NCBI GenBank assembly: GCA_016182565.1
Contig: JACPGI010000003.1
Span: 70,206 to 134,205, forward strand
Direction of reading: 5' to 3'
DNA from: a candidate division WWE3 bacterium
Lineage (GTDB): Bacteria; Patescibacteriota; WWE3; UBA101185; UBA10185
Length of the DNA: 64,000 nt
In this document: in pieces, positions 4,673 to 24,716 of the stretch
Layout: each line of letters begins with the position of its first letter
Position numbering within the stretch: position 1 is the first letter of the stretch
Translations under genes and position numbers: made by a program
The notes under the pieces: model-generated
What the model saw: only the letters and a program-made list of their open reading frames with translations
The model's database searches: none
Told to the model about the DNA's origin: nothing

Positions 4673-5644
4673 ATGTCAAAAAAGTTAGTATCCATAGTAA
4701 TACCTTGTATTAATGAAGAGAAAAATATCAACCGAACACTTGACTCCTTATTAAAGCTTGAGCAAACCATTGATTATAATTTTGAAATCTTAGCTATTAA
4801 TGACGGAAGTAAAGACAGTACATGGAAAGTAATTTCTGAGTATGCGACTAAATACCCTCAGATTATAGGAATTGACCAAATGATGAATTTTGGGCAAAGT
4901 GCTGCTTATCAAGCTGGGTTTGATATGGCACATGGTGAGTATATTGTTACCCTTTCAGCTGATCTTGAGATACCTATTGAAAATATCACAAAAGTTTTAA
5001 GTCTTTTGGAGGATGGATATGACTTTGTAAATACACATAGGGTAGGGCGTTGGGGTCATGAAAAAGCTTCTCGACAAGTTCAAAGTGGTATGGCCAATAG
5101 AATTATCACAAAAATTTCTGGTGTAAGTATGATGGACCGAGGTTCTGGGTTAAAGGGATTTAAAAGACAAATTCTTACTCAGTTAAAACTTTATGGCGAG
5201 ATGCATAGATTTATTCCTGATTATTTATCAGCATTTGGCGCAAGAATGAAAGAATTTGATGTTGAATTTAAAGATAGGGATTATGGGAAATCCGCTTACG
5301 TTGGTGCAACTCGAACTATAAAAGTGATGTTAGACCTAACAACGCTTGCATTCATGCTTTATTTTGCAAGAAAACCATTTTCAATGATGCCGGGAAGACT
5401 ATTTGGATTTACGGGTGCAGTTACAACCGGGGTTGGAGGTATGACTGTGTTTTATTTACTTATTTTGAAGTTGATGGGGCAGAGTATAGGAAATAGACCA
5501 CTTTTAACTATTGCAGTTCTTATGGTAATAGTCGGAATTCAATCTATGATGATGGGTATGATCGGAGAACTTATGCTTCGCACATATTTTGAGTCAAGTG
5601 GGCGAAAAAATTATATGTCAAGAGAAGTTGTTAGGCGCAGCTAA
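4673..5644 (+). CDS. GT2 polyprenol-phosphate glycosyltransferase (Dpm1/GtrB/ArnC-like)
   Basis: An N-terminal GT-A fold (SIVIPCINEE, DGSKDST, acidic motifs) is followed by two C-terminal TM helices, the architecture of polyprenyl-phosphate sugar synthases. Confidence 0.75.
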   Translation: MSKKLVSIVIPCINEEKNINRTLDSLLKLEQTIDYNFEILAINDGSKDSTWKVISEYATKYPQIIGIDQMMNFGQSAAYQAGFDMAHGEYIVTLSADLEIPIENITKVLSLLEDGYDFVNTHRVGRWGHEKASRQVQSGMANRIITKISGVSMMDRGSGLKGFKRQILTQLKLYGEMHRFIPDYLSAFGARMKEFDVEFKDRDYGKSAYVGATRTIKVMLDLTTLAFMLYFARKPFSMMPGRLFGFTGAVTTGVGGMTVFYLLILKLMGQSIGNRPLLTIAVLMVIVGIQSMMMGMIGELMLRTYFESSGRKNYMSREVVRRS

Positions 5645-8772: not shown

Positions 8773-9159
8773 TCAAAGTTCAATACGTGGAATATCACCC
8801 TTATAAAATTTTTTAACATTAATTAGTTCATTTTTTTGGATATATGCCTTCAGTGCTCTATGAAGTCCATCCATTATCACCCACTTATTGTCTATATTTA
8901 TAGCAGCAATTGGATATGATAAATCCGTTTCCATTGTTCTGTTATACTGCTCGATGTGGGTTTGAGGGTTTTTTATCACTTCAATTGGTCTTAATGACAT
9001 TTCCTTTCCATTATCAGTCCAAAATGGCAAATGAAACATCCATTCAAAATCTTTAATTGGTAATTTTTCAATTGGGGCTTCTTCTGTCCAGAGTTTTTTA
9101 GTATCCCACCAAAAGTCTAAGCCAATATCTTTTGTTATGTTCGGTATGTCTCTTTTCAT
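8773..9159 (-). CDS. Hypothetical protein with a ParB/Srx-like DGxHR motif
   Basis: ORF with IMDGLHRALKAY, resembling the ParB-like nuclease domain signature. Confidence 0.35.
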   Translation of the reverse strand: MKRDIPNITKDIGLDFWWDTKKLWTEEAPIEKLPIKDFEWMFHLPFWTDNGKEMSLRPIEVIKNPQTHIEQYNRTMETDLSYPIAAINIDNKWVIMDGLHRALKAYIQKNELINVKKFYKGDIPRIEL

Positions 9160-9204
9160 AAAGGAATTATACTCTAGAAATATTTTGGTCGACTATAGCA
9201 GACG

Positions 9205-9321
9205 ACGTTTGCAACTATTTTATCACCTCTAAGGAGCTGATTTATATACCTGATTATGCCTAAATAAATTAATAGTACTGTTCTCAACTATTGATGGATT
9301 CAGTACGTTTGCAAAACTATT
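9205..9321. promoter_or_regulatory. Direct repeat CGTTTGCAA(A)ACTATT, two copies about 100 bp apart upstream of the glycosylase-like gene
   Basis: Seen at 9205-9218 and 9306-9321, inside the 204 bp intergenic region before the 9364 start. Confidence 0.25.
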
Positions 9322-9363
9322 AGATACCTGTTACAAAGTACACAATCAAACTATAATCAGAAT

Positions 9364-10110
9364 ATGGAGAATCATATGAAACCATCTGAGTTTACTAAGA
9401 GAGTTGTTGAACTCATGGAAAGGCGAGAAGGAATCTTTGCCAACCGATTTAATGTTGAGGACTGGGTACCAACAGATCTTGATTCAAAAGGAAAAGCTTG
9501 TTTTCTGTTTTTCCTCACCCAATTGGATTATGCGATTAAATCTACGCTTTTGTATGAGGGTGCCCGAAAACTTTATGCAGTAAATCCAAAGTTTTTCACT
9601 GCGGAGTTTATCTTGGATCTATCAGAAAAAGAGTTGACGGATATGTTGGCTAAATACCTTAGACCGAGATATATAAACGAGGCAGTATTTCGCTATAAAG
9701 CAAACAGCCGAAAGCTACTCGATCTGTATCAGGGTGACCCAAGAAATATTTTTAGAGCTGGTGATGCTCCTACCATTCTTAAAAAAGTCTGGGAATTCCG
9801 AGGGTTTGGACCAAAGACTGGAAATCTGTTTTTCAGATCAATGGTGACAACGTTTGAGATGGACCTTGCAAATATCGAAAGCGTATTGCCGCCGGTTGAT
9901 ATACATGATGTACGAATTGCGAGATTGATGGACTTTGTTGATAGTGATCAGATGACAGAGCGAAATGTCAGGTTGGTTAAGGAAATGTGGAGCACAGCCT
10001 GTAGAGAAGCGCATGTTAACTGGTTGATTTTTGATAAAGCGTTGTGGCTTCTTGGTTCAATAGGTAAACCTACCTCGAAGGAAGATATCTTGAGATTACT
10101 AAACCCATAA
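9364..10110 (+). CDS. HhH-GPD superfamily DNA glycosylase-like protein
   Basis: FRGFGPKTGNLFF followed by PPVDIHDVRIARL matches the EndoIII-type HhH plus catalytic Asp pattern (GVGRKTA...VDTHVxRVxxRL). There is no C-terminal 4Fe-4S cysteine cluster. Confidence 0.5.
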   Translation: MENHMKPSEFTKRVVELMERREGIFANRFNVEDWVPTDLDSKGKACFLFFLTQLDYAIKSTLLYEGARKLYAVNPKFFTAEFILDLSEKELTDMLAKYLRPRYINEAVFRYKANSRKLLDLYQGDPRNIFRAGDAPTILKKVWEFRGFGPKTGNLFFRSMVTTFEMDLANIESVLPPVDIHDVRIARLMDFVDSDQMTERNVRLVKEMWSTACREAHVNWLIFDKALWLLGSIGKPTSKEDILRLLNP

Positions 10111-10161
10111 AAATAGGGATAGTTGTGTTTGGAATTTCCAACAACTATCCCTTGCTTTGTT

Positions 10162-11172
10162 CTATAACAGGAGTTTATCAACAGCACGATACACCTCTGC
10201 TAAGCTATTTGCTCTAACATCCGCCGATTGATCAAGCATCAGATTTCTCGACATAACATGTCCGCCAGAAGCTGAGTATAAGGTGCTCTTGGTATCATAT
10301 ATGATCAACTTTTTGTTCATGCCTCTTGCTAAACCTTGTAAAGCCGCGGCTCCGGGGTCCATCTCTGTACTGTCCGCACCAATAATCACGATGTCTGACT
10401 TTAAGACATTTTTTATGTCTATGTCCCCAAGTCTGACAATACTCTTTTCGTCCTTCACACGTTTGAGTGCAGTGGGATTAAGCCGGTTCGAGGTCGTTGT
10501 AGCGTATCCCTTAGCTTTAAGAGCTCGTTCTATCTCGGCGCTTAACATTCTGCACCACTCAAACTGATTACCAGCAAGTTCGATATGCACTGTTTTTGTG
10601 TTACTAAGACGAAATCCAGATGAAGGTCTTGGTTGGACTTTTTGTTTCAATACATACTCTGCAAGCTGCTCTGTAAGCTGATCAAGCGCTGCGGCTATGT
10701 GAAGACTCTGTTGTTGACTGTATGTACGTTTACCACCATCAGAGTATTCAACCACGCGTGTTAATTTGCTTACCATGTTCATTAGCACCGGATCAAGCGG
10801 AAAGGTTAGCCTTTTGCCATAAGGCAGTTGGATGCTAAAAAAATCCGTTAACCCGACTAACACAGGTACTCCTATGGCAAATGCGTATCCAATCTCGAAA
10901 CAAATTCCTTCATCCTTCGCCATACCGTTTAGAAATCCGACCAAGGCCAAGCTGCGGTGTAGACGTTGCAGGTCAGCTTCATAAATGTATTTCGCCTTGT
11001 TTGTGACGATGACACTTGCCTGATCAGTATCTCTGTAAGGTACAAAGGTTTTTACAACAGGTACGCGCATGGAGGTTAGTCTTAGCTTTATGCGTTGTTC
11101 AATCTCAGCTGAAAACCTTCTATCCTCTGGCGAAAACAAACGAGTGAATATATAGATCATATTCCTGTTCAT
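10162..11172 (-). CDS. Tandem nucleoside 2-deoxyribosyltransferase-like (NDT/PF05014-like) domain protein
   Basis: Domain 1 carries the NDT signature DEGICFEIGYAFAIGVPV. Domain 2 carries a degenerate copy, DPGAAALQGLARGMNKKLIIY, with Gln in place of the catalytic Glu. The gene and tmk lie in a visibly GC-richer segment. Confidence 0.55.
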   Translation of the reverse strand: MNRNMIYIFTRLFSPEDRRFSAEIEQRIKLRLTSMRVPVVKTFVPYRDTDQASVIVTNKAKYIYEADLQRLHRSLALVGFLNGMAKDEGICFEIGYAFAIGVPVLVGLTDFFSIQLPYGKRLTFPLDPVLMNMVSKLTRVVEYSDGGKRTYSQQQSLHIAAALDQLTEQLAEYVLKQKVQPRPSSGFRLSNTKTVHIELAGNQFEWCRMLSAEIERALKAKGYATTTSNRLNPTALKRVKDEKSIVRLGDIDIKNVLKSDIVIIGADSTEMDPGAAALQGLARGMNKKLIIYDTKSTLYSASGGHVMSRNLMLDQSADVRANSLAEVYRAVDKLLL

Positions 11173-11188
11173 TTGTCCTCCTTCATTT

Positions 11189-11776
11189 CTAACGTAACCT
11201 TGTGTTGATCAAGTCTCTGAGTTGCTCAAAGATGGTGCCAAAAGGTTGAGTAGCATCCAAGATTGGTGACTTCGTAGCTTGTGCATACTCTCTGTACAGT
11301 TTGCGTGCATGTTCCAGTTGTTCAGCTGTATACGGACATGGTTTTTTGGCTTCTTCACCACGTTTGAGTGACAACTTAACTGGTAGGTCTAGCACAATTG
11401 TGAGATCCGCTTGTGGGATTTTGGAGTTCACCGCTTTGACGAACTTCAGGTCATATCCTTCAAGTCCACGGTAGACATATGCTGAGACGTTCCAACGATC
11501 TGCTAATACTAGGTAACCCTTTTGCAAGGCAGGAAGCACAAAGCGCTCATACCTGATCGCCCGATCGGTTGCAAATAGATACGTTTTCAGGAAAGCTGTA
11601 AGGTTTTTCGCATACAGACCTTCCCAAATGAATGGGCCGATTGGCGAAGTAAGTTCTTTTGTAGTCAGAACTTCACTGCCTTGGCGCTGGTAATACTCGG
11701 CTAATCGAGTGATGTGCGATGTTTTTCCAGCATTGTCGATTCCTTCGAGTGCAACAAGTAAACCTTTGGTTTTCAT
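11189..11776 (-). CDS. tmk: Thymidylate kinase
   Basis: P-loop ALEGIDNAGKTS, the DRW/Y motif region and a 195 aa length are typical of Tmk. Confidence 0.85.
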   Translation of the reverse strand: MKTKGLLVALEGIDNAGKTSHITRLAEYYQRQGSEVLTTKELTSPIGPFIWEGLYAKNLTAFLKTYLFATDRAIRYERFVLPALQKGYLVLADRWNVSAYVYRGLEGYDLKFVKAVNSKIPQADLTIVLDLPVKLSLKRGEEAKKPCPYTAEQLEHARKLYREYAQATKSPILDATQPFGTIFEQLRDLINTRLR

Positions 11777-11866
11777 TTTCTCTCCTTTAGAATGAGTGTT
11801 ACTAATCTTATAGGTTGTAATGCTTGTTTTGTCAACTAAATTGGCTGTTGTGATAACATAAAGTAT

Positions 11867-12493
11867 ATGAGTAAAAATAGAAAAATATTATTTGCAACCA
11901 CTAACGAAAACAAAATAAAAAGAATTCAGAAGTTAATAAGAGATTTAGACATAGAGTTACTAACCCTCTCAGATATTCCAGAAAAGATCGATGAGCCGAA
12001 TGAATTTGGAGAGAATGCTGTGGAAATAGCCAAAAACAAAGCAATTTACTATTGGGAGGCGACTGGTAAAAAAATGCCGGTTCTTACCCAGGATGATACT
12101 ATGGACTTTTTGGGGAATGTTTCACCGGAGGATGATCCAAAAACTGCAATTAAGGAACCTGTTGTAAAAGCGTTTGGAGAGTACTCAATATCTAATGCGA
12201 TAGCCTATTACTCGAAGCTTGCAGAAAGATATGGTGGTGAAATTGACTTTGCATTTAGATACGGACATGGTTTTGTAAGTGAAGATGGGGCTAAAGGTGC
12301 TAGTTCTTCATTGTATGCCAAGCTTGTGAAAGACCCAAAGGGCATAGATAAAGTGGGTAAATATCCTTTACGTGCATTAACTAAACTTAAGATTGGGAGT
12401 AATTATGTTTATTCCGAAGACTCTACAGAAGAAGAAAAAGTTACAGCAGACTCTGATATTAAACGTGCTTTAGTTGAGTTACTTTGTTCTTAA
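11867..12493 (+). CDS. Ham1/RdgB-like non-canonical purine NTP pyrophosphatase (divergent)
   Basis: N-terminal KILFATTNENKIKRIQ...EPNEFGENAVEIAKNKA...PVLTQDD follows the ITPase pattern (KIVFATGNxGK...E.g.tf.eNA..KA...PvlADDSGL). The C-terminal half is divergent. Confidence 0.5.
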   Translation: MSKNRKILFATTNENKIKRIQKLIRDLDIELLTLSDIPEKIDEPNEFGENAVEIAKNKAIYYWEATGKKMPVLTQDDTMDFLGNVSPEDDPKTAIKEPVVKAFGEYSISNAIAYYSKLAERYGGEIDFAFRYGHGFVSEDGAKGASSSLYAKLVKDPKGIDKVGKYPLRALTKLKIGSNYVYSEDSTEEEKVTADSDIKRALVELLCS

Positions 12494-13263
12494 TTACCTG
12501 TATTTTCGTGCTTATTTCTGGAATTAAAATATGCACAATAGTCACAGTCTATATTCGCTTCGGGAATAGTGTTGGAGTTCAGACACTTTTTAATATCCAG
12601 TAGTTTATTTTCAATCCAGCTATCGTTTCCTTTATATTCTATGAGGGTCATTTCAAATTCAAGCTTGCCGTCGAATGTCTGCTTTTCAGTGTTGCCGTTG
12701 CAGTACACAAAATATCCACTTTCGCGGACTTTATACCCATTTTGCCTTAACAGCCACTGATAAACTTCCATTTGCCTTTTATAACCTTCGTGCCAATCTT
12801 TATCTAGTTGAGTTATTTCCTCGCTCTTACTTGTAGCTTTGTAGTCTACAACTATATATTCACCTTTTGAGTTTATCCACAGGTCGTCTAACGCCCCAAA
12901 AACATACAAATTTGTGGGTTTATGAAAAAACTGAATTCCCTTAAAATTATCTCTCCAAGTATCAAGATCTTTGTGGCTGGCCGGTTTTGCGTCAACTTTG
13001 TACTTAGCTATTAAAGGATGTTGCGTATCGCCTGTGCGATATGTATCAAACTCTTTTTTCAGTAAATGGTCTACAGCGCTGTTTAGGGCAAAAGGATATC
13101 CTGGGGGTCTACCTGTCCCCAATACCCTATCCAAATAGAAACATCTTGGGCAATCTATAAACAAGTCTATTTTTGACCTACTTAACTTAAATGGTTCTTT
13201 TGAATCCTTGAAATATAGGTATTTATCGGTTTTTTGCGAGTTATAGTATTTGCTCATATTCAT
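12490..13263 (-). CDS. Cas4/RecB-family PD-(D/E)XK nuclease with Cys clusters
   Basis: Motifs GALDDLW (D), EYIVVDYKAT (ExK) and QMEVYQWLL (RecB QxxxY) are present, with an N-terminal CPRC and a C-terminal C...CDYC consistent with an Fe-S/Zn site. There is no CRISPR context. Confidence 0.7.
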   Translation of the reverse strand: MNMSKYYNSQKTDKYLYFKDSKEPFKLSRSKIDLFIDCPRCFYLDRVLGTGRPPGYPFALNSAVDHLLKKEFDTYRTGDTQHPLIAKYKVDAKPASHKDLDTWRDNFKGIQFFHKPTNLYVFGALDDLWINSKGEYIVVDYKATSKSEEITQLDKDWHEGYKRQMEVYQWLLRQNGYKVRESGYFVYCNGNTEKQTFDGKLEFEMTLIEYKGNDSWIENKLLDIKKCLNSNTIPEANIDCDYCAYFNSRNKHENTGN

Positions 13264-13277
13264 CTGCTACTAATTTA

Positions 13278-14441
13278 TTAGCGATTTCCCTTAGCTCTAT
13301 TATGCGTTTTGCACAGCATTTGACAATTTTTATTAGTCGTTGCCCCACCTTTGCTCCATGCTGCTACATGGTCAGCATCCATTTCATTGAATTCCCAAAT
13401 TTTGCTGTTATTGGCATCGTGTCCAATAGTACAAAGTGGACAATTTGATATGTCTTTAGCTCTGGCGGTATCTGTCTGCATTGTATATACCGATTTTTTC
13501 GTTGCCTCATCAAACACACGGACCTCTAACAATTTTGTGTCTATAGAATTTCCTAGAATATACTCAAAAATACCTTTACGATTTTTAACATAGGGGTCGC
13601 TATAAAGCTTGTGTACTTCTTTTGATACTTTCACAGGATCATAGGCTTTTTTATGATACTGTTCATACAGTCGTCCCCACTCGAGACTGCGCATTTCACT
13701 TTCCACATCGACAAAAGTGCCCGATATCCAATCTAACACCGTGTTGAAATAGGTTTTTAATTCACTAATGCTTTTATCGTAACGATGACGACTCATGTAG
13801 TCCCCAATACTACCCTTGCTAACCCAATCTAAAGCTTGTTCCAAAAATTCCTGTCTGTTGGCGCTGCCTTTTATGTAAACGCCCCACTTTTGGATGTTTG
13901 CGTTTTGGCTGTTACTAAACTCTTCTTTGCATAATGTTACGAACGGACCAGAATACACTGCATTCAACAATTCTTGTTCGTTTAGCGGGATCCCTGCAAT
14001 ATTAATTGTTTTAAACCACTCTTTTATCTCGCTTTCAGTACCCTCACATTCATAGATGAGTAATGTAGTTTCCAAAATTTTGATTTGTTTGTCCTTAGCG
14101 ATACCGCTAAAATACTGTTCCATGCCGTTTTCATCTTTGATGGCAAATTTGTTAGTAACAAACCTACCTATGCTAGTGATTCGTTGTTGTCCGTCAAGAA
14201 CTTCAAATTTAGCCTCATTTACTTTTGTAAAATAAATTAAACCTATTGGGTACCCTTTTAGAATGGATTCAATGACAGCAACATCTTTTTTGCCATCAGC
14301 ATATATATAGTTACGTTGATACTCGGGTTGGATTGTGAGTTTACCTGATAGTCCGAACAGCCCTTTTCCTTCGAGTTCATTGTAAACGAACCCTTCGCAT
14401 ATATTTTTAATTGAAATACTTGTATTTAATGTTGTTTTCAT
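13278..14441 (-). CDS. GmrSD-like type IV restriction enzyme (DUF262 ParB-like NTPase plus C-terminal HNH)
   Basis: The N-terminus has the DUF262 signature IQPEYQRNY...LDGQQRITS. The C-terminus has the HNH motif [12 protein letters not shown]...[15 protein letters not shown]. Confidence 0.75.
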
Positions 14442-15532
14442 TTTGTTACTCGCTTTCTTACAAATAATCTTTTATAAACTTCTTTACCCTTCAAATAAGA
14501 CCCTCTGCCATAAATATTGTTAGGATCTTGGTTAACACCACGATTTGATCCTAAAATCTCAAATTGTTTGGGATTATATTTATCTAAAAAGCTAACGGGT
14601 ACACCCATCACCCCCTTATAGTCACAGGGAATGCATTTAACAGTAGAAACTTCTATCGCATTGTAATTATCATATTTTTCAAACGGTTTTTTAGTAACGA
14701 ACTTTATTATATCTGCTTCGGTCATTAATGATAAAAATTCGTGAAGTCGCCCATGGTCTAAATTTGTAAACCAGCGAACGCCTTGAACTCTAGTTATAAA
14801 TACCTTTTCTCCATTTTCATTTGTTCTTATTTCTCTTACTTGCTCTAAGTTGGCAATATTCTCTGGTATCTCATAAAACATAGCACCTCCATTAATTTTA
14901 TAGTTGTTGCCAAGCCAAACTCTATTGTCTTTGATCAGCGGGAAAACTTCTATGTATGTAATTGCGTTTAAATTACCTATAAGCAGAAATTGTTTTTTAG
15001 CTTCCACAATCCAAGCTAGAAATTCGCGGAATAAAGAAAAAGGAGGATTTGTGATAATAATGTCTGCTTCGTTACGTAGTTTCTTAAGCTCGTCACTGCG
15101 GAAATCCCCATCACCTTCAAGGTAGTGCCATTCAAGATCTTCGATATTAACCTTTCCGTCGCTAGTATTATCTTTTGTTAAAGTAAATATTTTTCCGTTA
15201 CTAATAGTTTTATTTGCATCATAAAGTGGGTTATTTGTTTCGAAAAGTGTTGGTTGATAAGAGCTTTTATAGTTTTTACTCTTTGTTGCGTAACTGGTGC
15301 TTATTAACTTTTTTATGCCAAAGCGTTCGAAGTTTTGAGCAAAATACTTAGTAAAGTTACTCCATTCTGGATCATCGCACGGTAGTAATATAGTTTTATT
15401 GCGAAAAATATCGGGGTTGTACTCTATATAAGCGGAAACCTCTTTCTCTATATCAAAATATTGAGTATAAAACTCATCATTTTTAGCAGCCTTTGCTAAC
15501 TGCAATTTCTTATTTGCAAATTCATTTTTCAT
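14438..15532 (-). CDS. M.EcoRI-family N6-adenine DNA methyltransferase
   Basis: N-terminal [22 protein letters not shown]...[13 protein letters not shown] closely matches M.EcoRI (SDEFYTQYCDIENELQYY...CNCDDP). The catalytic motif [10 protein letters not shown], is present. The start was moved to the internal Met ([10 protein letters not shown]) that aligns with the M.EcoRI N-terminus. Confidence 0.8.
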
Positions 15533-15621
15533 TGTCGTAGTGGTTTTAGAGAATAGAAACCAATGAAGGTCATCCATTCTCCGTGCAACCTTTCGGTAAC
15601 ACACATACTCTTTCGAGCATG

Positions 15622-15671
15622 ACCACTACGACATGATAGAGAAATGGATGACCATCTCTGCGTCGTAGTGG
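15622..15671. promoter_or_regulatory. Perfect 10 bp inverted repeat (CCACTACGAC/GTCGTAGTGG) with a 29 nt spacer, upstream of the MTase
   Basis: Seen directly: CCACTACGAC at 15623-15632 and GTCGTAGTGG at 15662-15671, with a nested AGAGA/TCTCT repeat in the spacer. It lies in a 314 bp divergent intergenic region. Confidence 0.3.
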
Positions 15672-15846
15672 ATTTGAAACCATGCTTAATTTATGAAGTT
15701 AAGTTTAGGTCTATTACCTTATTAAGTTGTACTAAGATCACGTTCTAATGTGATCACTAGAAGATTATACCCCAATAGTTTTCTAGTATGTAGGTTTTTG
15801 TAATAAATGCTGATTTTCGTTGTTACGGCAAGTATAAAGCGGTATA

Positions 15847-16512
15847 ATGTATGTTAGTATTATGGAAAAAAATAAAAAAATAACAACTACATCTAGAGAT
15901 GTAGAAACTACAAAAGAAAAACCTATCCTCGATAATTTAGAGAAACTTGTAAAAACGGAATCGCAGGGATTTCGACCTAGAAAACTCTTGGTAGATTTGG
16001 ATACCGCATATAAAGCTTACAACGAAGTTAAAGGAACCAAGAAAGCAGAAGATGCCGAAAAAACTTTAAATAATGTTTATAACGATGCAGTTTACGCATA
16101 TTCATTAGACAATCATGTTGCTATAACAGGTTCTGTGACCAAAACCTACAGACCATTGGTTGTAGGCATGACTGAACAGCTTATGGCGGAATTTGATTGT
16201 AAAGCACCGCATGAGAAGGCTTTAGCAGAGCTAATCGCAAGCTCGTACGCTCGTTATATCCAATTCACAAGTTTTTTTAATAATGCTCAAAATATAGATT
16301 ATCTGAGTACTGAAAAAACAAACTACTATACTATGTTTAGCAAAGAGGCCGACAAGGCACATAGGCAGTTTACTAACGCCCTCATGACATTAAAACAAAT
16401 AAAAACACCTGTTCCAACGGTGAACGTAATGGCGAAGAACGCTTTTGTAGCACAAAACCAGCAGTTAAACACTTTTGGTAATGAGAAACAAAAGGAAATC
16501 GTTAATGGGTAA
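15847..16512 (+). CDS. Hypothetical alpha-helical protein, first gene of the RT-containing gene string
   Basis: 221 aa ORF co-oriented with the downstream RT and overlapping it; no recognisable motif. Confidence 0.3.
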   Translation: MYVSIMEKNKKITTTSRDVETTKEKPILDNLEKLVKTESQGFRPRKLLVDLDTAYKAYNEVKGTKKAEDAEKTLNNVYNDAVYAYSLDNHVAITGSVTKTYRPLVVGMTEQLMAEFDCKAPHEKALAELIASSYARYIQFTSFFNNAQNIDYLSTEKTNYYTMFSKEADKAHRQFTNALMTLKQIKTPVPTVNVMAKNAFVAQNQQLNTFGNEKQKEIVNG

Positions 16513-16825
16513 TTATTCAGGAAATAAAATTTTAGTAGATGCTTGTCCAAAAATTACTTTAAAAGGAGTATTTGATGTTGCAAAAGATCAACTTCTAACT
16601 GAGCTTATGAAAAGAACGGCAAATGTTGCCGGATTTGATGTTGAATTTTCATCGAGTTCTCTTGCACACGGCGGAAAACGACTTTGGTTTAAGTGCCCTA
16701 TATGCAGTTCTCGTGCAGGTGTTTTATATAAGCACTTTTTAACTCAACAAGTTGGGTGTAGGACATGCTTAAATCTTGACTATAAAAGTAGAAGGTATAA
16801 AGGTATGACAGAAAACTCGGTGTAG
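16475..16825 (+). CDS. Hypothetical zinc-ribbon protein (CPIC...CRTC)
   Basis: 116 aa ORF with a C-x2-C...C-x2-C pattern. It overlaps the upstream ORF and precedes the RT. Confidence 0.3.
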   Translation: MVMRNKRKSLMGNYSGNKILVDACPKITLKGVFDVAKDQLLTELMKRTANVAGFDVEFSSSSLAHGGKRLWFKCPICSSRAGVLYKHFLTQQVGCRTCLNLDYKSRRYKGMTENSV

Positions 16826-16865
16826 CCTTTAGATTTACATAATAAAACCTGCCCAAAAAATTAAA

Positions 16866-18987
16866 ATGAATATGAAAAACGATATATTGTTTGATAATTT
16901 AGTAAATCCGAATAATTTGGAAAAAGCTTTTGATTACTTACTTATTGAAATAGAAGGGTCAAGCTTAGCCCTCGATCCACTGTGGACCCCTGCGGTATTA
17001 GCAATTAAAAAGCATAGAAAAGAATATTTCATTGCTCTTAGTGAGCTTTTGAGAAGTGGTGATTTTCATGCTGATTCAGCAACGTATTTTAAATTTCCCA
17101 AGGACAGTTTAGGTATAAGACCGGTGGCGGTACTATCTGTAACAGATAGGATAGTTTATCAAGCAATTTTTTTACAGCCAGTTTTAGGTAATATCCTTAA
17201 ATCCAAGTTTGTAACTCCACCTTGCTATACGCCTAATATTTCCTTAGGTCATGAAAAAACTTTCCTTGAAGATTGGCACATAAAATGGGATAGCTACATA
17301 GAGGATCAAGTTTTTGCTTATGTGGAAGGGTACAGATATAAGGTTGAGTTAGATGTAAAATCTTTTTTTTGATAACATAAATCACAAACTTATAAGAGAT
17401 TTTTTGACCAAAGATTGTGGAATCAACGGTACAAAAGTAATAGACATACTAATAAACCTATTAGAGACATGGGCTCACAAACCAGGCTTTGGTGTGCCCC
17501 AAGGACCGGAGGCATCTATATTTCTCTCATCCGCATATTTATCAAAATTTGATGAAAAAGCTTTGTCTGTTGGTAACGAGTTAGACTTCAAGATATTTAG
17601 ATATAATGATGACCTTAGTTTAATGGCAAAATCCCCAGAAATCCTCCATCAGGTTATAGAGATTTTATCAGGATATTTGTTTGATATATTCCTTGATCTA
17701 AACGGTAAAACAGCGTTTTACTTGCTTGATCAAAAAGAGATATCAAAACTAAATAAGAGGAGAATTTACTCTCCTTACAACGACGACGAAGATTCTGCTT
17801 ATACTCTTGCCACCATAGAGGATGAAGTTCCTGGATATTTAGAAAAGTTAGCAATAAATAAAAAACTTGAGCAACACGAAATATCGGCCCTGAAGTATTA
17901 CTTAAAGAGCGCAAAAAATAAAGCGTATTTCAAGCAACTTATTGATCTGCTAGATAAATCTCACTCCTTTTCATTATATATATGTAGATATGTACAAAAA
18001 TTTGTTGATGATGGAACCGTTTTTGCTTATTTGTTGAATGCCTATAACAAAAAGCATCTTTATTCGTGGACAAAGTTTTGGGTACTAAAGACTTTAATAT
18101 CATCGAAGTTATTTCAAAACTCCAAATATAAATATGATACAAAAGCAATGGTCTTGGATTCTTTTAATGATAAAAGTTGGGAAATTAGAGCACTTTGTTT
18201 ATATGTAGCCGAAGTTTTTGGTTTCCTAAGTGCTCCAACTATAACAATCGGAAAGTATTATAGATCCGCGGAAAATATCTACGAAAAGAGCATGACATCG
18301 TATTTACTCGGAAATAGAAAAGAATACAATTCCCTGTCGGAATTGTTAAGGAATGAATGTGTAGACCTGCAAATAATTGCTTACAGTTTTTTGAATAAAT
18401 TTGAATTGACACAGCTTCCAAACGATCTTTCACAATTTAGTCAAAAGTTGTTCAATATAAACGATGTCGAAGCAAAAAATGATTCTAATGTACAAATACC
18501 AAACTCTTTACTCGATCTTATTAGTGAAAGTGGAGCTGTTCACGTGACATTAGACACGAGTAAATTGAAAAAAGAGTTAGGTTTAACCTGGAACCATAAG
18601 GGTAGTATTTTGAAAAAATCAAAGCAGGTAGCCCATTGGTTGGAACAGAAGGAAACAGGTCATATCGTTATGGATGGAACGTACATATTGTCTAATCCTA
18701 ATGTTGATAGTGAAAACTGGACATTTATATCGTATGTTATTAGCCGATCTGGTAAGCAAATTACACGCAAAGAAATTAACGCTGATTCATCAGAACGTGT
18801 GTTACGCCCATTCAATAACATCCTTAATGATCTTGGATTTAAGGGTGAGATTAAGAAGTTATTTTTCCCTAAGACAGGCGATGACTCCGTAAGGTTTTTC
18901 TGTAAAATAAAATACGGAGATATGAAAACAATGTTGGTAGACGAAGAAAAGCTTAAAAGCCAGCTTAAAAAATTAAAGAGAATTTGA
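16866..18987 (+). CDS. Single-chain reverse transcriptase (Abi/DRT-like, about 700 aa with a C-terminal helical extension), interrupted by a frameshift in a T8 tract at 17363-17370
   Basis: RT motifs are all present: 1/2 PKDSLGIRPVAVLSVTDRIVYQAIF, A KVELDVKSFF|DNINHKL (split by the frameshift), B' GVPQGPEASIFLSSAYL, C RYNDDLSL (YxDD) and D/E LDLNGKTAFY. The C-terminal 430 aa or so is helical and non-RT. ORF1 (16866-17372) and ORF2 (17404-18987) join if one T is removed. Confidence 0.8.
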
Positions 18988-19058
18988 AGTTCTACGAACC
19001 ACCACGAAAGACTATGAAACACGGCTAGTAACCTCAGTAATGTTGCTATTCTTCCTGT

Positions 19059-19316
19059 GTGAACAACAGGATTAATAAAATACAAATTAATATTTATCGC
19101 AGTACAGACCTCGCTATTAGTAGCTACCTATCGCTTTCATATACCCTACTGGGTTTAGAGAAAATTGATGGTAATAGGTACGAGTTTGTTTTTGAAAAAA
19201 CCCCCGAATTAGAGAAATCAGTAGAATCATTTTTTAATAACACAGCAACCGTTTCACCTTCCGATTATTTCAATAGTATAAAAAGTTTAAAAAGCCGGAT
19301 TTATTCCAGGAGCTAA
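19059..19316 (+). CDS. Small hypothetical protein (element-borne)
   Basis: ORF only; part of a co-oriented gene string. Confidence 0.25.
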   Translation: MNNRINKIQINIYRSTDLAISSYLSLSYTLLGLEKIDGNRYEFVFEKTPELEKSVESFFNNTATVSPSDYFNSIKSLKSRIYSRS

Positions 19317-19555
19317 TGATGTTGCCTAAAGATGCAGTAACCGAATTTGCAGGTCTTTACCTCAAAAACTTTGGTGTTCAGTTGACATCGGAGGAAGCAG
19401 AGGAAAGGGCAAATAGAGTTTTTAACTTTTTCAAAACGATAATCAGGCCAGTTGAAGAAAATAACAAATTAGTGGAAGAAGTCCCCGGCCAGGAATCTGA
19501 AGCAGAAAGGAAAAATAAAACCTATGGCGATAAAAAGAAAAGTAAAAAAAGCTGA
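19316..19555 (+). CDS. Small hypothetical protein (element-borne)
   Basis: ORF with an ATGA overlap with the upstream ORF. Confidence 0.25.
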   Translation: MMLPKDAVTEFAGLYLKNFGVQLTSEEAEERANRVFNFFKTIIRPVEENNKLVEEVPGQESEAERKNKTYGDKKKSKKS

Positions 19556-19907
19556 AGGTATTAAACCAATACCCGCGGATATCTATCCTGCAAAGCTAGT
19601 TTCCATCGCAGAAGGTGATGGTGACTATGGTAAGTACTTCAAACTTGAATTTGAAGTTACCGACGGAACTTACTCCGGTGAAAAGAGAACCATCATAGCC
19701 AGCGACAAGCTTTCACGAGGTCAAAAGGGAGGCTCAAAGCTTCTTGGTATCTTGGAAACTTTAACAGGCAAGCAATTGGATTTTGACCAGGAAATTGATA
19801 TCGAAAGCTATCTTGGTTCAAGATGCAGGATATTGGTTGATGAAGCCGAAACCAAGGGTGACATCCAAATTCAGAATGTCGGTAAAGTGATGCCACCCAA
19901 AGAGTAG
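19524..19907 (+). CDS. Small hypothetical protein (element-borne)
   Basis: ORF only. Confidence 0.3.
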   Translation: MAIKRKVKKAEGIKPIPADIYPAKLVSIAEGDGDYGKYFKLEFEVTDGTYSGEKRTIIASDKLSRGQKGGSKLLGILETLTGKQLDFDQEIDIESYLGSRCRILVDEAETKGDIQIQNVGKVMPPKE

Positions 19908-19971
19908 AAAGTATCAAATTAAGGAGACAACGGGGAGGGTTTCGCGACTCTCCCCCTCCGGAAGAATCTTT

Positions 19972-22335
19972 ATGCAACAAGATTATAACAAATTAAATAA
20001 ACAACCGTCTGAGTTTTTAGACGAGTGGAAAATTGAATATGATGACAAAGGCAAGGAACTTGTGTTAGCCTGTTTGTTTTCTGACTGCGATAGTGAGGGA
20101 AACACCAAACACCTATACATGGACGCAGACACGGGGCAATTTTGGTGCCACAAATGCCATAAGAAAGGTAACCTTGTTACTGTTGCCGAGCATTTGAATC
20201 TAAACCCATCAGACCTATTTGAAAAGCCTAAAACGAAAACTGTAAGACTAAAAAGTGGTAGAAAGGTTGAACTAAAAGCAGAACCCAAGTCCGAGGAGTT
20301 ACTAGAAAAAGCCAGTAGTTACCATAACAACCTATCCGTTGAACAACGTGAATATCTGAACAAGAGGGGCATAACAAACGCTACGGTTGATACCCGGCTT
20401 ATTGGTGAGAGCGAAATATATGGAGTTAAAAGAATCACACTCCCTGTTTTTGATAAAAATGGAAATGTAATAAGTATCAAGGCTAGGGTTGTTCAAGAGT
20501 TAGAAGAAGCTACAGATGCAAAATATGTGTATTTCCCTACGGGTGCAAAGGCATCGCTTTACGGTTTAGACCTATTAGAAAAAAGTATTTCTGATTTTGC
20601 GATTATTTCCGAAGGTGAGTTTGATTCGCTAATTCTTTCACAATGGGGATACACTTCAGTTTCTTCTACCGGTGGAGCTGGAACATTTTCATCTGATTGG
20701 GTTTTATTTTTTGATAATTTCCAAAAGATATATTTTTGCTATGACAACGACAAGGCGGGCAAAGAAGGCGCAATTGAACACGCCAAAAAGTTTAAAAACA
20801 AAAAAGTATTTATAGTAGAAATACCACAAATTGAGGGTGTAAAAGATGTAACAGAATTTGCAACGGTTGCAGGAAATACAAAAGAAGATTTTGAATTGCT
20901 TTTGAAAAATGCCAAAGAATATAATCCTTACAGTCCAGAGTTCCTAAATCTTGAGTTTGGCGAGCCAATCAAAGAGTTTATTCCGTCACAGTTTTATGAT
21001 GCAGACACTACGTTTTTCACTATTCCGTTAAACATTAAAAATAATGAGGAAAGTCCATTCAGGGTTATAACCTCAAACAAAGAACTTTATACGCTAGATG
21101 AAGTTAAGGATAAGTTTAACTACAAAATAGTAAGAAATCCTGATTTTATGCAGCGTTGGAGTTCAGATGGTGTAAGGGCATATTTATCCGGCAAAGGTGC
21201 ATCTAGCTATAATATTACGTTGCAGGAGCTGGTTTCTTTCCTGAAACAATATGTTGACCTGTCAAACGAAAACTGGTATTTGGTTATAGCCCTATGGCTT
21301 TGGGGAACTTACTTTTATCGTATCTTTAATAGTTACCCCTATTTCAACGTAAACGGCTTGATGGGCTGTGGTAAGTCAAAGTTATTGGAAGTTGGCTCAT
21401 TTCTTGCTTTCAACGGTGAGTTTTTAGTTACCTCTACCCCGGCTTTTGTTATTGATTGTATAAACGATAATTGTGCAACGCTATTCTTGGACGAAGTTGA
21501 AAATCTTAAAAATGCTGCAAATCCCGACACACAAACAATGGTTCAAATGCTTAACTCTGGTTATAAGAAGGGTCCCAAGAAAGGTAAGAAAGACCCAAGC
21601 GGTAAAGGTAAAGGCTGGAACTCAATAAAACTAGACCCTTACAGCCCAAAAATGATTGCTGGTATCAAAAACATTAGCGACACGCTTATTTCTAGATCAA
21701 TAAATATGACTATGGTTTTGAGCAACAATAATGAAATCAAGAATAAAGAATTAAGCGAATCTGATACAAGATTGAGCAGTTATAGAGATACTTTCTATTA
21801 CTCTGCAATGGAACTTCACACCGATATTAAGGATATTTACAATCAACTAACCGAAACAGAAGTTTTTGGTAGAAATTGGGAAGTTTGGAGACCACTATTT
21901 TGCATCGCTTTAGCACTGAATAGCCAAAACCCTGAAAGTGAACCTGTTAACTACAACAAAGTTAGAACCTTTGCATTGGAAATAATAAAAAACCAATCAG
22001 GAATAAATGCAGAAAACCAAAGCACAATCCAAATGCTTGTGGCGTTTAGAGAAATGATGGTCCGAGATCAAAGATTAAACAACTTTTACACTATGTCGCA
22101 ACTTAAAACCTTTTTACTTGATAATCACGGAGACTATTTTGATTGGCTTGGAGAGTTCAAGGAAAGTGGCATAAGCCGATACATAGGCGATGAGTTAAGA
22201 AAGACCGGGATTGTAACGGAAGCTGCAAAAGCTGTAAAAATTGACGGTAAGACCCAAAGAGGCTTCATTTTGGATAGGAATTTAATAGAAAGGCGTCTTA
22301 AAGCCTACGGTATTGAGTTTGGAGTAACTGCGTAA
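19972..22335 (+). CDS. Primase-helicase (CHC2 zinc finger, TOPRIM, P-loop NTPase)
   Basis: It has a zinc-binding CHKCHKKG, a TOPRIM region (IISEGEFDS...CYDNDKAGKEG) and Walker A GLMGCGKSK in the C-terminal half. This is the architecture of phage/plasmid primase-helicases. Confidence 0.75.
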   Translation: MQQDYNKLNKQPSEFLDEWKIEYDDKGKELVLACLFSDCDSEGNTKHLYMDADTGQFWCHKCHKKGNLVTVAEHLNLNPSDLFEKPKTKTVRLKSGRKVELKAEPKSEELLEKASSYHNNLSVEQREYLNKRGITNATVDTRLIGESEIYGVKRITLPVFDKNGNVISIKARVVQELEEATDAKYVYFPTGAKASLYGLDLLEKSISDFAIISEGEFDSLILSQWGYTSVSSTGGAGTFSSDWVLFFDNFQKIYFCYDNDKAGKEGAIEHAKKFKNKKVFIVEIPQIEGVKDVTEFATVAGNTKEDFELLLKNAKEYNPYSPEFLNLEFGEPIKEFIPSQFYDADTTFFTIPLNIKNNEESPFRVITSNKELYTLDEVKDKFNYKIVRNPDFMQRWSSDGVRAYLSGKGASSYNITLQELVSFLKQYVDLSNENWYLVIALWLWGTYFYRIFNSYPYFNVNGLMGCGKSKLLEVGSFLAFNGEFLVTSTPAFVIDCINDNCATLFLDEVENLKNAANPDTQTMVQMLNSGYKKGPKKGKKDPSGKGKGWNSIKLDPYSPKMIAGIKNISDTLISRSINMTMVLSNNNEIKNKELSESDTRLSSYRDTFYYSAMELHTDIKDIYNQLTETEVFGRNWEVWRPLFCIALALNSQNPESEPVNYNKVRTFALEIIKNQSGINAENQSTIQMLVAFREMMVRDQRLNNFYTMSQLKTFLLDNHGDYFDWLGEFKESGISRYIGDELRKTGIVTEAAKAVKIDGKTQRGFILDRNLIERRLKAYGIEFGVTA

Positions 22336-22486
22336 CTATATGAGGCAAAGTTACTGTAATAACAAACAAAACAGTTGGTTACGAAGTAGGTTACGATATA
22401 CCCCTACCCTACGTAACCCATATCGTAACCAGAGATCTTGCTTGTCCTTACAATATAAACGCAACGCAAGGTTACAAAGTTACAAG
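22324..22486. repeat. Iteron-like cluster of at least nine GTAAC/GGTTAC motifs including an imperfect palindrome of about 54 bp (22377-22430)
   Basis: Seen directly: GGTTACGaagtaGGTTACGATATACCCCTACCCTACGTAACCCATATCGTAACC, plus GTAACTGCGTAACT upstream and GGTTACAAAGTTACAAGG downstream. It lies immediately 3' of the primase-helicase gene. Confidence 0.5.
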
Positions 22487-22493
22487 GAATCTT

Positions 22494-22853
22494 ATGCCAG
22501 TAAAAGATCTGTTGTTAAAAGTAAATAAAGCACAAACTGGAAATCATAGCGTCCATATGATTCAGGAAGTTGTAAAAGAGGTTGACTCCGAAAACCAAGG
22601 AATTCCTGCCACAGAAACCTTTGAGTCGGTTGATCTATCAACACTAAGTTCAAAGGAGCTTTTAGCTTTAAATAAACAGCTAACCTCTTGGCTGGAAACG
22701 CATGAGTGTCAAACAGGAACCGACAATAAGTTGGATATTAACGACAGACCCTATGACCACGAGCTATACCTAAAAAAGCTACGACTGTACGAAGAAACCT
22801 GTGTTGCTTACTTCTCAAGACCGCTTGGCGAGGAGTTGGAAGGTGTCTTATAA
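22494..22853 (+). CDS. Hypothetical protein (element-borne)
   Basis: 119 aa ORF between the primase-helicase and the recombinase. Confidence 0.3.
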   Translation: MPVKDLLLKVNKAQTGNHSVHMIQEVVKEVDSENQGIPATETFESVDLSTLSSKELLALNKQLTSWLETHECQTGTDNKLDINDRPYDHELYLKKLRLYEETCVAYFSRPLGEELEGVL

Positions 22854-22950
22854 CTATGTATAATTTATATGGATACATATGCAAAGATAGTGAAATGGCC
22901 GAATTGGTCTTATATCTTTGCGGATGTATCCAACCAGTTCGGCCATTTTT

Positions 22951-24576
22951 ATGGAAATAAATAGAAACCTTACAGGCTTAAAAGCCATTGAATACAACCG
23001 CAAAAGCTCGGAAGACGAGGAACGCCAAATCGCGTCTCTTGAAGATCAACATGCAGAAAATCAAAAAGTGATTGAAAGACATCAACTTAAAGTTGCAAAG
23101 TGCGACATTATTGAGGAATCTAAATCAGCCAAGAAACCTGGGCGACCGAAGTTTAATAAAATGGCTGAAGATATTGCTAATGGCAAGTATCAGGTTATTG
23201 TGTGTTGGCAGGCAAACCGTTTAGCTCGTAATTCTCGTGATGCTGGTGAAATCATTGGCTTACTTTCCGATAAAAAACTAATAGCAATCGTTACTCCTGG
23301 TAAGATTTACTATAACGGTGGTGAGGACAAACTTCTTCTTTATATCGAATTTGGTATGAGTGAAAAATACAGCGATGACTTATCAGCAAATGTTATTCGC
23401 GGTATGACTTCGAAAGTTGGTAGAGGTTGGTGGCCTGGTAGACCAAAAGTAGGTTATGTAAACATTAAATATGACGGTGAGGAACCTGTTCAGATTATAG
23501 ACGAACAAAGGTTTCCGCTACTCCGCAGAGCGATAGACCTATTTTTAGATGGTAATCACACGGCACCCCGCGTTTTAGAAATATTAAATGACGAGTGGGG
23601 TTTTAAAATGCGAAAAACCAAAAGAACCGGTGGTGGGAAGATGAGCAAAGGTAAGTTTTACAGCTTTTTATCCGACCCTTTTTACTATGGAAAATTGATT
23701 TGGGGCAAAGAGATTGGGGATGTTCATAAAAACCTGAAGCGACTCCTGAGTGAGGACGAGTTTTGGAAAGTACAGGCTCTTATGGGTAAACGCGGACAAG
23801 CAAGACCAAGTGTACATACCAAACTGCCGTTTAGAGGCCTAATTAAGTGCGGTGAGTGCCAAAGCACTTGGATTCCTTATGCTAGACCTAGGCAAACGGT
23901 TGATGGTAGCTTTAAACTGTACGAATATATTAGGTGTAACCACGACGGGATAAGTAAAAAATGTACACAAAAACAAGTAACTATCCAAGAAATTGAGAAA
24001 CAGGTTTTGGAGTTGTTGGACCAGATAACAATCTCGGAGGACTTCTGTAATTGGGCAATTGATTGGATTAAAAAGCAGCATCAAACAGAATCAAGCGCAC
24101 AACTACAAATACTCAAAAATCTTGAAAGTTCTTTGGAACAAATCCAAGGCCGCAAGAATAAGTTAGTAGAAATGTATATGGATAGCCTGTTAGACGGACA
24201 AGCAGACTATAAGAAACGCAAAGCGGATTTGGAAAAAGAGGAACAAGATATACAAAAGGAATTAAACGCCTTGAAAACCAGAACAAACAACTGGATGGAT
24301 TTGGCTATTAAAACCTTCAACTTTGCAAAGAACGCCCGCTATCACTTTGAACATGGAACATTTGAGGATAAGACTTTGATACTTCGCACACTCGGCTCGA
24401 ACTTTTACATGCTTAACGGGAAACTGTGTGTTGACCTAATAAAACCCTTCTTTATTTTCAAAAACAATCAGGATTTAGTAAATGTGCCTTTTGAAACTAT
24501 TGAAAACCCAGAATACGCCGACGTTATGGCCGGAACTGATGATCTTGAACATTGGTTTTTAAAATGGTCGGGGTAG
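22951..24576 (+). CDS. Large serine recombinase (integrase)
   Basis: The N-terminal catalytic domain has YNRKSSEDEERQIASLEDQ and ANRLARN. A recombinase domain and a zinc ribbon (CGECQ...C) follow, then a coiled coil. The stop codon overlaps the 3' end of tRNA-Pro. Confidence 0.8.
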   Translation: MEINRNLTGLKAIEYNRKSSEDEERQIASLEDQHAENQKVIERHQLKVAKCDIIEESKSAKKPGRPKFNKMAEDIANGKYQVIVCWQANRLARNSRDAGEIIGLLSDKKLIAIVTPGKIYYNGGEDKLLLYIEFGMSEKYSDDLSANVIRGMTSKVGRGWWPGRPKVGYVNIKYDGEEPVQIIDEQRFPLLRRAIDLFLDGNHTAPRVLEILNDEWGFKMRKTKRTGGGKMSKGKFYSFLSDPFYYGKLIWGKEIGDVHKNLKRLLSEDEFWKVQALMGKRGQARPSVHTKLPFRGLIKCGECQSTWIPYARPRQTVDGSFKLYEYIRCNHDGISKKCTQKQVTIQEIEKQVLELLDQITISEDFCNWAIDWIKKQHQTESSAQLQILKNLESSLEQIQGRKNKLVEMYMDSLLDGQADYKKRKADLEKEEQDIQKELNALKTRTNNWMDLAIKTFNFAKNARYHFEHGTFEDKTLILRTLGSNFYMLNGKLCVDLIKPFFIFKNNQDLVNVPFETIENPEYADVMAGTDDLEHWFLKWSG

Positions 24577-24641
24577 CAGGACTCGAACCTGCGGCCTCGC
24601 GAACCCGAATCGCGCGCTCTAGCCAACTGAGCTACACCCCG
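24565..24641 (-). tRNA. tRNA-Pro (anticodon CGG)
   Basis: A manual fold of the reverse complement gives a 7 bp acceptor stem (CGGGGTG/TACCCCG), a D-arm, an anticodon stem CGCGA/TCGCG with loop TTCGGGT, a T-arm GCAGG-TTCGAGT-CCTGC and an encoded CCA. Confidence 0.85.
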
Positions 24642-24716
24642 TAAGATCAAAATTTTGTGAGATTGAATGCTACCACCACTTTAGCATAATAATTTACACT
24701 GTTTTTATATAACAAC

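Follow-up and report, generated by a model that had tools for sequence, protein, structure and literature searches.

The repeat array and its immediate neighbours

The 64,000 nucleotides analysed here (the window) come from a bacterium of candidate division WWE3, which belongs to the Candidate Phyla Radiation (CPR). Our subject is a dense array of short repeats, or iterons, that fills the 158-bp gap between the gene of a 787-aa primase-helicase (19972–22335) and an open reading frame (ORF) of 119 aa (22494–22853). Besides containing the iterons, the gap is crossed by a predicted 62-aa ORF. The features of the gap and of the gene preceding it are given below, with positions counted from the first nucleotide of the window.

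19972–22335, plus strand: 787-aa putative initiator, with zinc finger and DnaG/Toprim primase, MCM-like P-loop ATPase and C-terminal winged helix
22324–22336, minus strand: outer-left iteron pair GTAACtgcGTAAC, 8-bp pitch, overlapping the 3' end of the primase-helicase gene including its TAA stop
22340–22528, plus strand: 62-aa ORF crossing the array, with no protein-level selection signature
22350–22354, plus strand: ninth GTTAC, replaced by GTTAT in L001, L002 and L013, which are close relatives
22377–22395, plus strand: inner-left iteron pair GGTTACGaagtaGGTTACG, 12-bp pitch, kept in all clades at 11–12 bp
22396–22411, no strand: central spacer of 16 bp, about 50% A+T, with its length kept and its sequence not
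22412–22430, minus strand: inner-right iteron pair CGTAACCcatatCGTAACC, 12-bp pitch, mirroring the inner-left pair
22470–22483, plus strand: outer-right iteron pair GGTTACaaaGTTAC, 8-bp pitch, ending 11 nt short of the start codon at 22494

The first-pass annotation of this DNA had counted at least nine GTAAC/GGTTAC motifs in 160 bp, including a 54-bp imperfect palindrome, and had noted the 62-aa ORF over them. The count is exactly nine GTTAC/GTAAC pentamers within 22324–22483, with starts at 22324(−), 22332(−), 22350(+), 22378(+), 22390(+), 22413(−), 22425(−), 22471(+) and 22479(+). The palindrome is located at 22377–22430, its arms GGTTACGAAGTAGGTTACG and CGTAACCCATATCGTAACC agreeing at 16 of 19 positions, and the ORF is present as described. 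Such a cluster is not random. The 64-kb window contains 150 pentamers altogether, which is more than expected (114 ± 10) and corresponds to approximately 0.37 per 160 bp; the runner-up 160-bp stretch holds six of them. When 150 sites were placed at random, nine or more in one stretch were reached in 1 of 20,000 trials.

Since the pentamer at 22350 is changed in the three close relatives, the conserved set consists of eight motifs forming four direct pairs, and the ninth, judging from this comparison, is probably incidental and outside the functional array. The nine-motif array as first described thus stands for eight of its members. The four pairs follow each other in the order << ... >> 16 bp << ... 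>> and are concentric, sharing one centre at position 22403.5. Their cores comprise 5–7 bp, which read GGTTACG in the inner pairs and GTTAC in the outer ones. The pattern GTTAC-N2-8-GTTAC occurs four times in 64 kb versus 0.73 expected, and all four occurrences are pairs of the array; none of 100 shuffles reached four or more. Relaxed searches with either pair type gave no further copy in the 64-kb window.

Some other places in the window contain similar letters. About 12 GTTAC/GTAAC copies, mostly on the minus strand, are found in 0.9 kb at 44060–44970, and seven in 200 bp at 46763–46958. A divergent pair, GGTAACCTTGTTAC, with one mismatch to the outer-pair pattern lies at 20167–20181 in the 5' part of the primase-helicase gene, possibly by chance. 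Within the gap, TTGCTTG and TATAAA (22438–22459) are invariant in the clade of the window; they are 10 bp apart, which is not the canonical sigma-70 spacing.

Conservation of the motifs and divergence of the frame across them

The array was compared with 17 further loci encoding relatives of the 787-aa protein, which fall into four clades with primase-helicase identities of 92–94%, 45–49% and approximately 43–45%. Where the contig is long enough, the relatives have the gene order DUF5659 protein (19059–19316 in the window), ~70-aa ORF, 127-aa ORF, primase-helicase, gap, ORF, recombinase, tRNA. The gap measures 128–160 bp and is followed by an ORF of 84–119 aa, a large serine recombinase and a gene for tRNA-Pro, tRNA-Gln or tRNA-Leu; the order helicase, array, small ORF, recombinase is kept in at least 12 loci.

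In all clades, the gap has one architecture built on GTAA/TTAC cores. The first core lies between −11 and +4 nt from the end of the stop codon in the 17 loci, and the left-pointing outer pair, with a pitch of 8–9 bp, has its counterpart on or within 4 nt of that codon in every clade; in L001, L002 and L013 it does not vary at all. Then come the inner pairs, right-pointing followed by left-pointing, with a pitch of 11–12 bp in the relatives, or as single inner sites in the L019 clade. A right-pointing outer pair with a pitch of 8–9 bp stands directly before the next gene in three of the four clades (those of the window, L011 and L019; the L003 clade has none). The innermost convergent cores are 22 or 23 nt apart, start to start, in all four clades, with unrelated sequence between them. 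Position, orientation, pitch and this 22–23 nt spacing are therefore conserved, in contrast to the spacers and the ORF, which diverge.

The motif itself changes from clade to clade. Its extended form is GGTTACG in the clade of the window, TGTTACA in that of L003 and (A/C)TTACA, that is, GTAAT/GTAAG on the other strand, in those of L011 and L019. Within each clade, all the copies, direct and inverted, carry the same change, and the fact that both kinds of copy change together fits one binding protein and not base pairing. A reading of GTWAC as a methylation or restriction site was also considered, and it is rejected because in other clades the motif is the non-palindromic GTAAT/GTAAG, in an unchanged orientation pattern; the methylase of the island to which the array belongs is EcoRI-like.

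The constraint on the motifs can be quantified. In the clade of the window, 1 of 44 motif columns is variable versus 36 of 125 elsewhere (Fisher p = 8e-5), and in the L003 clade, at 45–49% identity, the motif columns are 98% conserved versus 75% for the rest (p ~1e-9). These alignments indicate that purifying selection is on the motifs and not on the ORF or the spacers, and that the array is a genuine, conserved set of predicted protein-binding sites. Two more distant relatives of the primase, L026 (280-bp gap) and L027 (tyrosine integrase, no gap), have no comparable array; they share the N-terminal primase only and, therefore, are uninformative either way.

The palindromic layout might also serve as a structure, that is, a hairpin or cruciform acting as RNA terminator, attenuator or single-strand origin. 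The segment 22372–22435 folds as single-stranded DNA at −13.3 kcal/mol (z = −5.8), and the fold of the alignment has 13 pairs, some of them changed on both sides. However, the stems consist of the iteron motifs only, the spacers between them not being complementary, and other clades fold only weakly (z = −2.8 and −2.3). The two-sided changes occur in the direct copies too, and thus reflect motif identity rather than pairing. Neither a T-run nor a terminator match was found, and a promoter and terminator scan of the gap gave no sigma-70-like promoter and no intrinsic terminator. In Rfam, no family came near threshold at the array; the only matches were eukaryotic miRNA hairpins far below threshold, owing to the palindromy of the array. 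With only the iterons pairing and the fold weak outside the clade of the window, we consider a hairpin function extremely unlikely.

The first-pass annotation had proposed that the 62-aa ORF is probably not coding, and that conservation of the array or of the ORF in related elements would tell the two apart. It is the array that is conserved. Variable sites of the ORF in the close clade are distributed as 7/14/14 over the three codon positions, versus 9/4/49 in the tail of the primase gene, and between the window and L002 the non-synonymous to synonymous codon changes are 13:6, versus 5:40 in the primase tail. In the L003 clade, the three phases of the gap are about equally conserved (0.76/0.81/0.81), with no 3-base periodicity, compared to 0.91/0.96/0.70 and 0.87/0.91/0.74 in the flanking genes. 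The frame of the gap-crossing ORFs relative to their neighbours differs by clade, and the residues common to the clades are those encoded by the motifs only. Moreover, the frame is interrupted in L005 and L017, L021 has no ORF of at least 30 aa, and the predicted 62-aa peptide is of low complexity, rich in Arg, Tyr and Asn. The opposite outcome, in which the protein is conserved and the motifs are not, is thus not what the relatives present, since their motifs are conserved and their ORFs diverge or are interrupted.

These same data bear on the possibility that the gap encodes a real small protein, or else a spacer ORF linking the translation of the primase-helicase with that of the genes after it, in which case the repeats would be secondary. 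In its favour, one frame is free of stops across the gap in most clades, as seen in the window, L002, L003, L011, L012, L016, L019 and L024; shuffling the bases outside the motif cores, which are held in place, gives such a frame with a probability of 0.03–0.22 per sequence. In the L011 clade, the gap ORF even overlaps both of its neighbours by ATGA, and it is called as a gene in L011. Against it stand the substitution pattern, the flat phase profile, the shifting and broken frames and the composition of the peptide, and we regard it as quite improbable. The frame may be translated as a spacer ORF whose sequence is not constrained. On present evidence, we would not annotate the 62-aa ORF as a protein.

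The putative initiator, its island and the function of the array

The protein encoded immediately upstream of the array combines three predicted parts.

aa ~23–320: primase domain, with matches to Pfam Toprim_2 and PHROG DNA primase (E = 4e-34) and profile matches to DnaG and T7 gp4 primase structures
within the C-terminal 458 aa, which have no Pfam family: ATPase, with Walker A GCGKS and Walker B LDEVE
aa ~703–778 (nt ~22078–22305): winged helix, beta-H-H-H-beta-beta, well predicted

An AlphaFold model of this C-terminal part, made from 15 homologues, is of moderate quality, with a predicted local distance difference test score (pLDDT) of 67. The model resembles MCM, the Cch protein of the staphylococcal cassette chromosome SCCmec and the Rep protein of the staphylococcal pathogenicity island (SaPI) SaPIbov1, with the ATPase core at a pLDDT below 50; Foldseek gave no significant match. 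The C-terminal module belongs to a large family that is essentially without annotation (6,706 cluster representatives at E ≤ 1e-3, roughly 170 of them close), whose members stand alone or are fused to primases of the DnaG type or of the archaeo-eukaryotic (AEP) type and give sub-threshold matches to DUF3631 and ORC-CDC6-like proteins. Very small plasmids, namely Sulfolobus pXZ1 (6.97 kb) and Acinetobacter plasmids of 8.9–12 kb, have distant relatives of the ATPase half as their large ORFs. Scans of viral contigs gave no relatives, and the sole match in the phage database was Methanobacterium virus PhiF3, at 23% identity. One of the Acinetobacter plasmids, pYUSHP14-3 (NZ_CP090070.1, 9.8 kb), encodes an 894-aa relative of the ATPase half with a Toprim domain; 3' of this Toprim-helicase gene, at 5300–5440, there are a 22-nt perfect inverted repeat or hairpin and several TATTGATT repeats, a region that may be an analogous origin.

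The clades differ in the predicted recognition helix and wing, and these differences go along with those in the iterons. Two other proteins of the locus come into question as partners of the array. The 127-aa protein encoded directly 5' of the primase-helicase (19524–19907) keeps a size of 127–129 aa in all relatives; its match to the NCBIfam entry 'phage replication initiation protein, NGO0469 family' is sub-threshold (26.8 bits, cut-off 75; E = 3e-6). The iterons might be bound by this protein instead, or it might be a single-strand-binding partner. The 119-aa protein was also considered as iteron binder and rejected: its AlphaFold2 model is a helical hairpin of two long helices with a disordered N-terminus, with no significant fold match and no recognisable DNA-binding fold. 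It has no match in Pfam, PHROG or NCBIfam, and it may possibly be a directionality factor.

The array lies within an island of about 15 kb, at approximately 9190–24570, that is integrated in a tRNA-Pro gene. The features of the island that delimit or mobilize it, with the small ORF next to the array, are the following.

9183–9263, no strand: candidate left junction, an 80-bp block conserved with L002 3294–3374 and starting TTTTGGTCGA
22494–22853, plus strand: 119-aa conserved small protein between array and recombinase, with the conserved core SWLETHECQTGTDNKLDINDRPYD
22918–24576, plus strand: large serine recombinase of 552 aa, with Pfam Resolvase, Recombinase and Zn_ribbon_recom and PHROG integrase (E = 2e-68)
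24565–24641, minus strand: tRNA-Pro(cgg), integration target and right junction

The 3' end of the recombinase gene overlaps the tRNA-Pro gene by 12 nt, and homology to the sister islands L001 and L002 stops at 24648–24652. On the other side, the left block begins with TGGTCG, the reverse complement of the tRNA 3' end; a search of the left end for a displaced tRNA 3' fragment gave nothing beyond these letters. From the two junctions it follows that the array is inside the integrated island. Sister islands, found in metagenome-assembled genomes labelled Saccharibacteria, have genes for tRNA-Pro(ggg), tRNA-Pro(tgg), tRNA-Gln and tRNA-Leu as targets.

These borders bear on the other function named in the first-pass annotation, a target of the recombinase. 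In that case, the array would be a site, or an accessory site, of the attP or res kind. The size of the inner 54-bp imperfect palindrome is that of an attP, the recombinase gene is 430 bp downstream, and it is generally known that resolvase res sites are multi-subsite arrays beside the recombinase gene. However, in an integrated island attP should be split, and the array is intact, with the junctions at 24565–24641 and ~9183–9263; the sequences around them (9150–9300 and 24500–24660) are free of GTTAC/GTAAC. The sister islands keep GTTAC-type arrays whether they are at tRNA-Gln, tRNA-Leu or other tRNA-Pro isoacceptors, and half-sites of large serine recombinases are, as generally known, not tandem pentamers. 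An intact array together with junctions lacking the motif makes the recombinase-target proposal very unlikely.

The main alternative to a replication origin is a transcriptional operator, namely a regulatory array for the operon of small ORF and recombinase, controlling excision and integration. Its binder would be a regulator of the island, or the winged helix of the primase-helicase as autoregulator, and it would be compatible with an origin. The array occupies the largest intergenic gap of the plus-strand gene block, and its right outer pair, 11 nt before the ATG at 22494, abuts an AAGGA ribosome-binding site. A pitch of one helical turn and dyad symmetry are also typical of operators. On the other hand, the gap has no sigma-70-like promoter on either strand, and it is the upstream stop codon, not the downstream start, to which the array is anchored. 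The L003 clade lacks the outer-right pair. No second copy of the paired motif occurs in the island, including its divergent region 15605–15846, and the model of the adjacent small protein has no helix-turn-helix, ribbon-helix-helix or other DNA-binding fold. Eight sites over 160 bp in a conserved nested geometry are, moreover, in excess of the needs of a simple operator. We think that an operator function is rather unlikely.

Since its anatomy matches the replication modules of staphylococcal islands, we read the segment 22324–22483 as the vegetative replication origin (ori) of the ~15-kb integrative island, with a probability of roughly 60%. The suggestion of the first-pass annotation, an origin or initiator-binding site beside its helicase, is probably right in the light of the conserved array, the layout of the protein and the analogy with known modules. 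We infer that the binder would be the 787-aa protein, which would melt the DNA and replicate the island. The island would first be excised by the serine recombinase. The 787-aa protein would then read the iterons through its C-terminal winged helix, and two oppositely oriented oligomers would assemble on the mirror-image halves (>> <<). These oligomers would melt the DNA, the helicase would load itself, and synthesis would be primed by the DnaG-type domain of the same protein.

Several observations do not sit easily with an origin. No AT-rich centre is found: the central spacer has 16–19 bp, with 50% A+T in the window, and the flanking spacers have 71% and 59% A+T, compared to 63% for the island on average. 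One clade lacks the outer-right pair. The profile of the 15 homologues, searched against all PDB sequences (SaPI Rep and PriRep included), matched only DnaG and T7 primase domains and gave no homology to the helicases of SaPI or SCCmec. The covariation of motif and winged helix, suggestive as it is, spans four clades and is inseparable from shared descent. The persistent stop-free frame across the gap is not explained by a pure origin model; translation across the array could be coupled to origin firing or to expression of the recombinase. Finally, no GC or AT skew switch is seen at 22.4 kb, where the first-pass annotation had looked to a GC-skew switch as support for an origin. The skew is uninformative on this scale, as it follows gene orientation and the island has only ~15 kb.

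If the segment is an origin, rep and ori together (~2.5 kb, 19972–22490) would make a compact and portable replicon from a radiation with almost no genetic tools. To our knowledge, no plasmids or island replicons of CPR bacteria have been characterised, and the cassette could seed the first replicating vectors for these bacteria. A wider claim is that islands of this type are the first recognisable autonomous replication modules of the CPR (WWE3 and Saccharibacteria-like): tRNA-integrating, serine-recombinase-mobilised and carrying defence cargo, with a compact four-pair origin without AT-rich centre fired by a primase/MCM-like/winged-helix protein. We put this forward tentatively, as a possibility that is open to doubt. 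The fixed 22–23 nt spacing of the innermost cores and the missing AT-rich centre provide a testable constraint on the docking of the two oligomers.

Concerning the cargo, the left arm of the island (9364–15604) has genes mostly on the minus strand and a locally higher G+C content (0.39–0.42).

10162–11172: nucleoside 2-deoxyribosyltransferase-like protein, two matched stretches
11189–11776: thymidylate kinase
11867–12493, plus strand: Ham1-like protein
12490–13263: Cas4-like PD-(D/E)XK nuclease
13278–14441: GmrSD_N + HNH restriction enzyme
14438–15604: EcoRI-like adenine methyltransferase

Further to the right, a defence-type reverse transcriptase is found in two ORFs (16866–17372 and 17404–18987) that are 31 nt apart (PADLOC DRT UG19/UG21-like, E down to 2e-23). 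The split may reflect a pseudogene, a frameshift from sequencing or a programmed feature; a stretch 67% identical to the enzyme is found in L016. In L003 (5692–6141), and also in L004, a Terminase_2 small terminase is encoded at the left end of the island, beside restriction-modification and SNF2/PLD defence genes. The small terminase in L003 suggests that the islands may be phage satellites, similar to phage-inducible chromosomal islands (PICI).

Comparison with known replication origins

The closest parallels are found in staphylococcal islands. Rep of the SaPIs is a self-loading helicase whose C-terminal winged helix binds penta- or hexanucleotide iterons, and the SaPI ori has 6–12 iterons directly 3' of rep, at least two on each side and in opposite orientation (PMC9371898). 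In SaPI5, Pri and Rep are fused in one polypeptide (PMC9371898). The arrangement of SaPI Rep has been likened, in an eLife paper, to that of the large T-antigen of simian virus 40 (SV40). In the island studied here, eight conserved motifs of 5–7 bp follow the primase-helicase gene, beginning on its stop codon, and the inner pairs >> (22378, 22390) and << (22413, 22425) are in opposite orientation, with the outer pairs mirrored. Primase and ATPase are in one chain with a predicted C-terminal winged helix, as in SaPI5 according to the structural model, and both elements are integrative islands. They differ in that the SaPI origin has an AT-rich centre, whereas here there is a spacer of fixed length (16–19 bp) that is not AT-rich, and a second, outer tier of pairs at another pitch. 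The initiators have no detectable sequence homology, and the SaPIs use a tyrosine integrase, whereas this island has a large serine recombinase and a CPR host.

In the pattern-2 replication module of SCCmec, the putative ori separates cch2 from the serine recombinase gene ccrC; it has 5-nt iterons to which Cch2 binds with its C-terminal domain (PMC7581432). The iterons of the WWE3 island, too, lie between a helicase gene and a large serine recombinase gene, and the recombinase is similar, below threshold, to CcrA and CcrB, as it is to XisF in NCBIfam. SCCmec, however, has three direct AAGTG iterons and separate inverted repeats instead of four nested mirror-symmetric pairs, and its primase (CCPol-MP) is an A-family polymerase pair and not of the DnaG type. 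Here, moreover, a small ORF stands between array and recombinase. The integration target of SCCmec is rlmH (orfX), unlike the tRNA gene used by this island.

With the core origin of SV40 and the polyomaviruses the likeness is functional only. Four GAGGC pentamers, arranged >> <<, nucleate there two head-to-head helicase hexamers of the large T-antigen. The proteins are unrelated, and the DNA-binding domain of T-antigen is N-terminal. The SV40 pentamers are 1 bp apart (6–7 bp here), and the origin is flanked by an AT tract and an early palindrome, which have no counterpart in the array.

Classical iteron plasmids (pPS10, RK2, R6K, F) are alike in having repeated initiator-binding sites near the initiator gene. 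Their origins comprise direct iterons of 17–22 bp, DnaA boxes and an AT-rich DNA unwinding element (DUE), and their initiators are WH1-WH2 Rep proteins without helicase activity. Here, the cores are of 5–7 bp in inverted sets; the array has no long direct-repeat family and no AT-rich block, and no search was aimed at DnaA boxes.

We think that the segment 22324–22483 is probably a known kind of element, an iteron origin similar to those of SaPI and SCCmec; its host lineage is new, and its putative initiator is of a family that is uncharacterised. If this is true, the logic of the staphylococcal islands, in which a self-loading helicase-initiator acts on pentamer iterons past its own stop codon, would reach a distant phylum and a large unannotated family of helicases.

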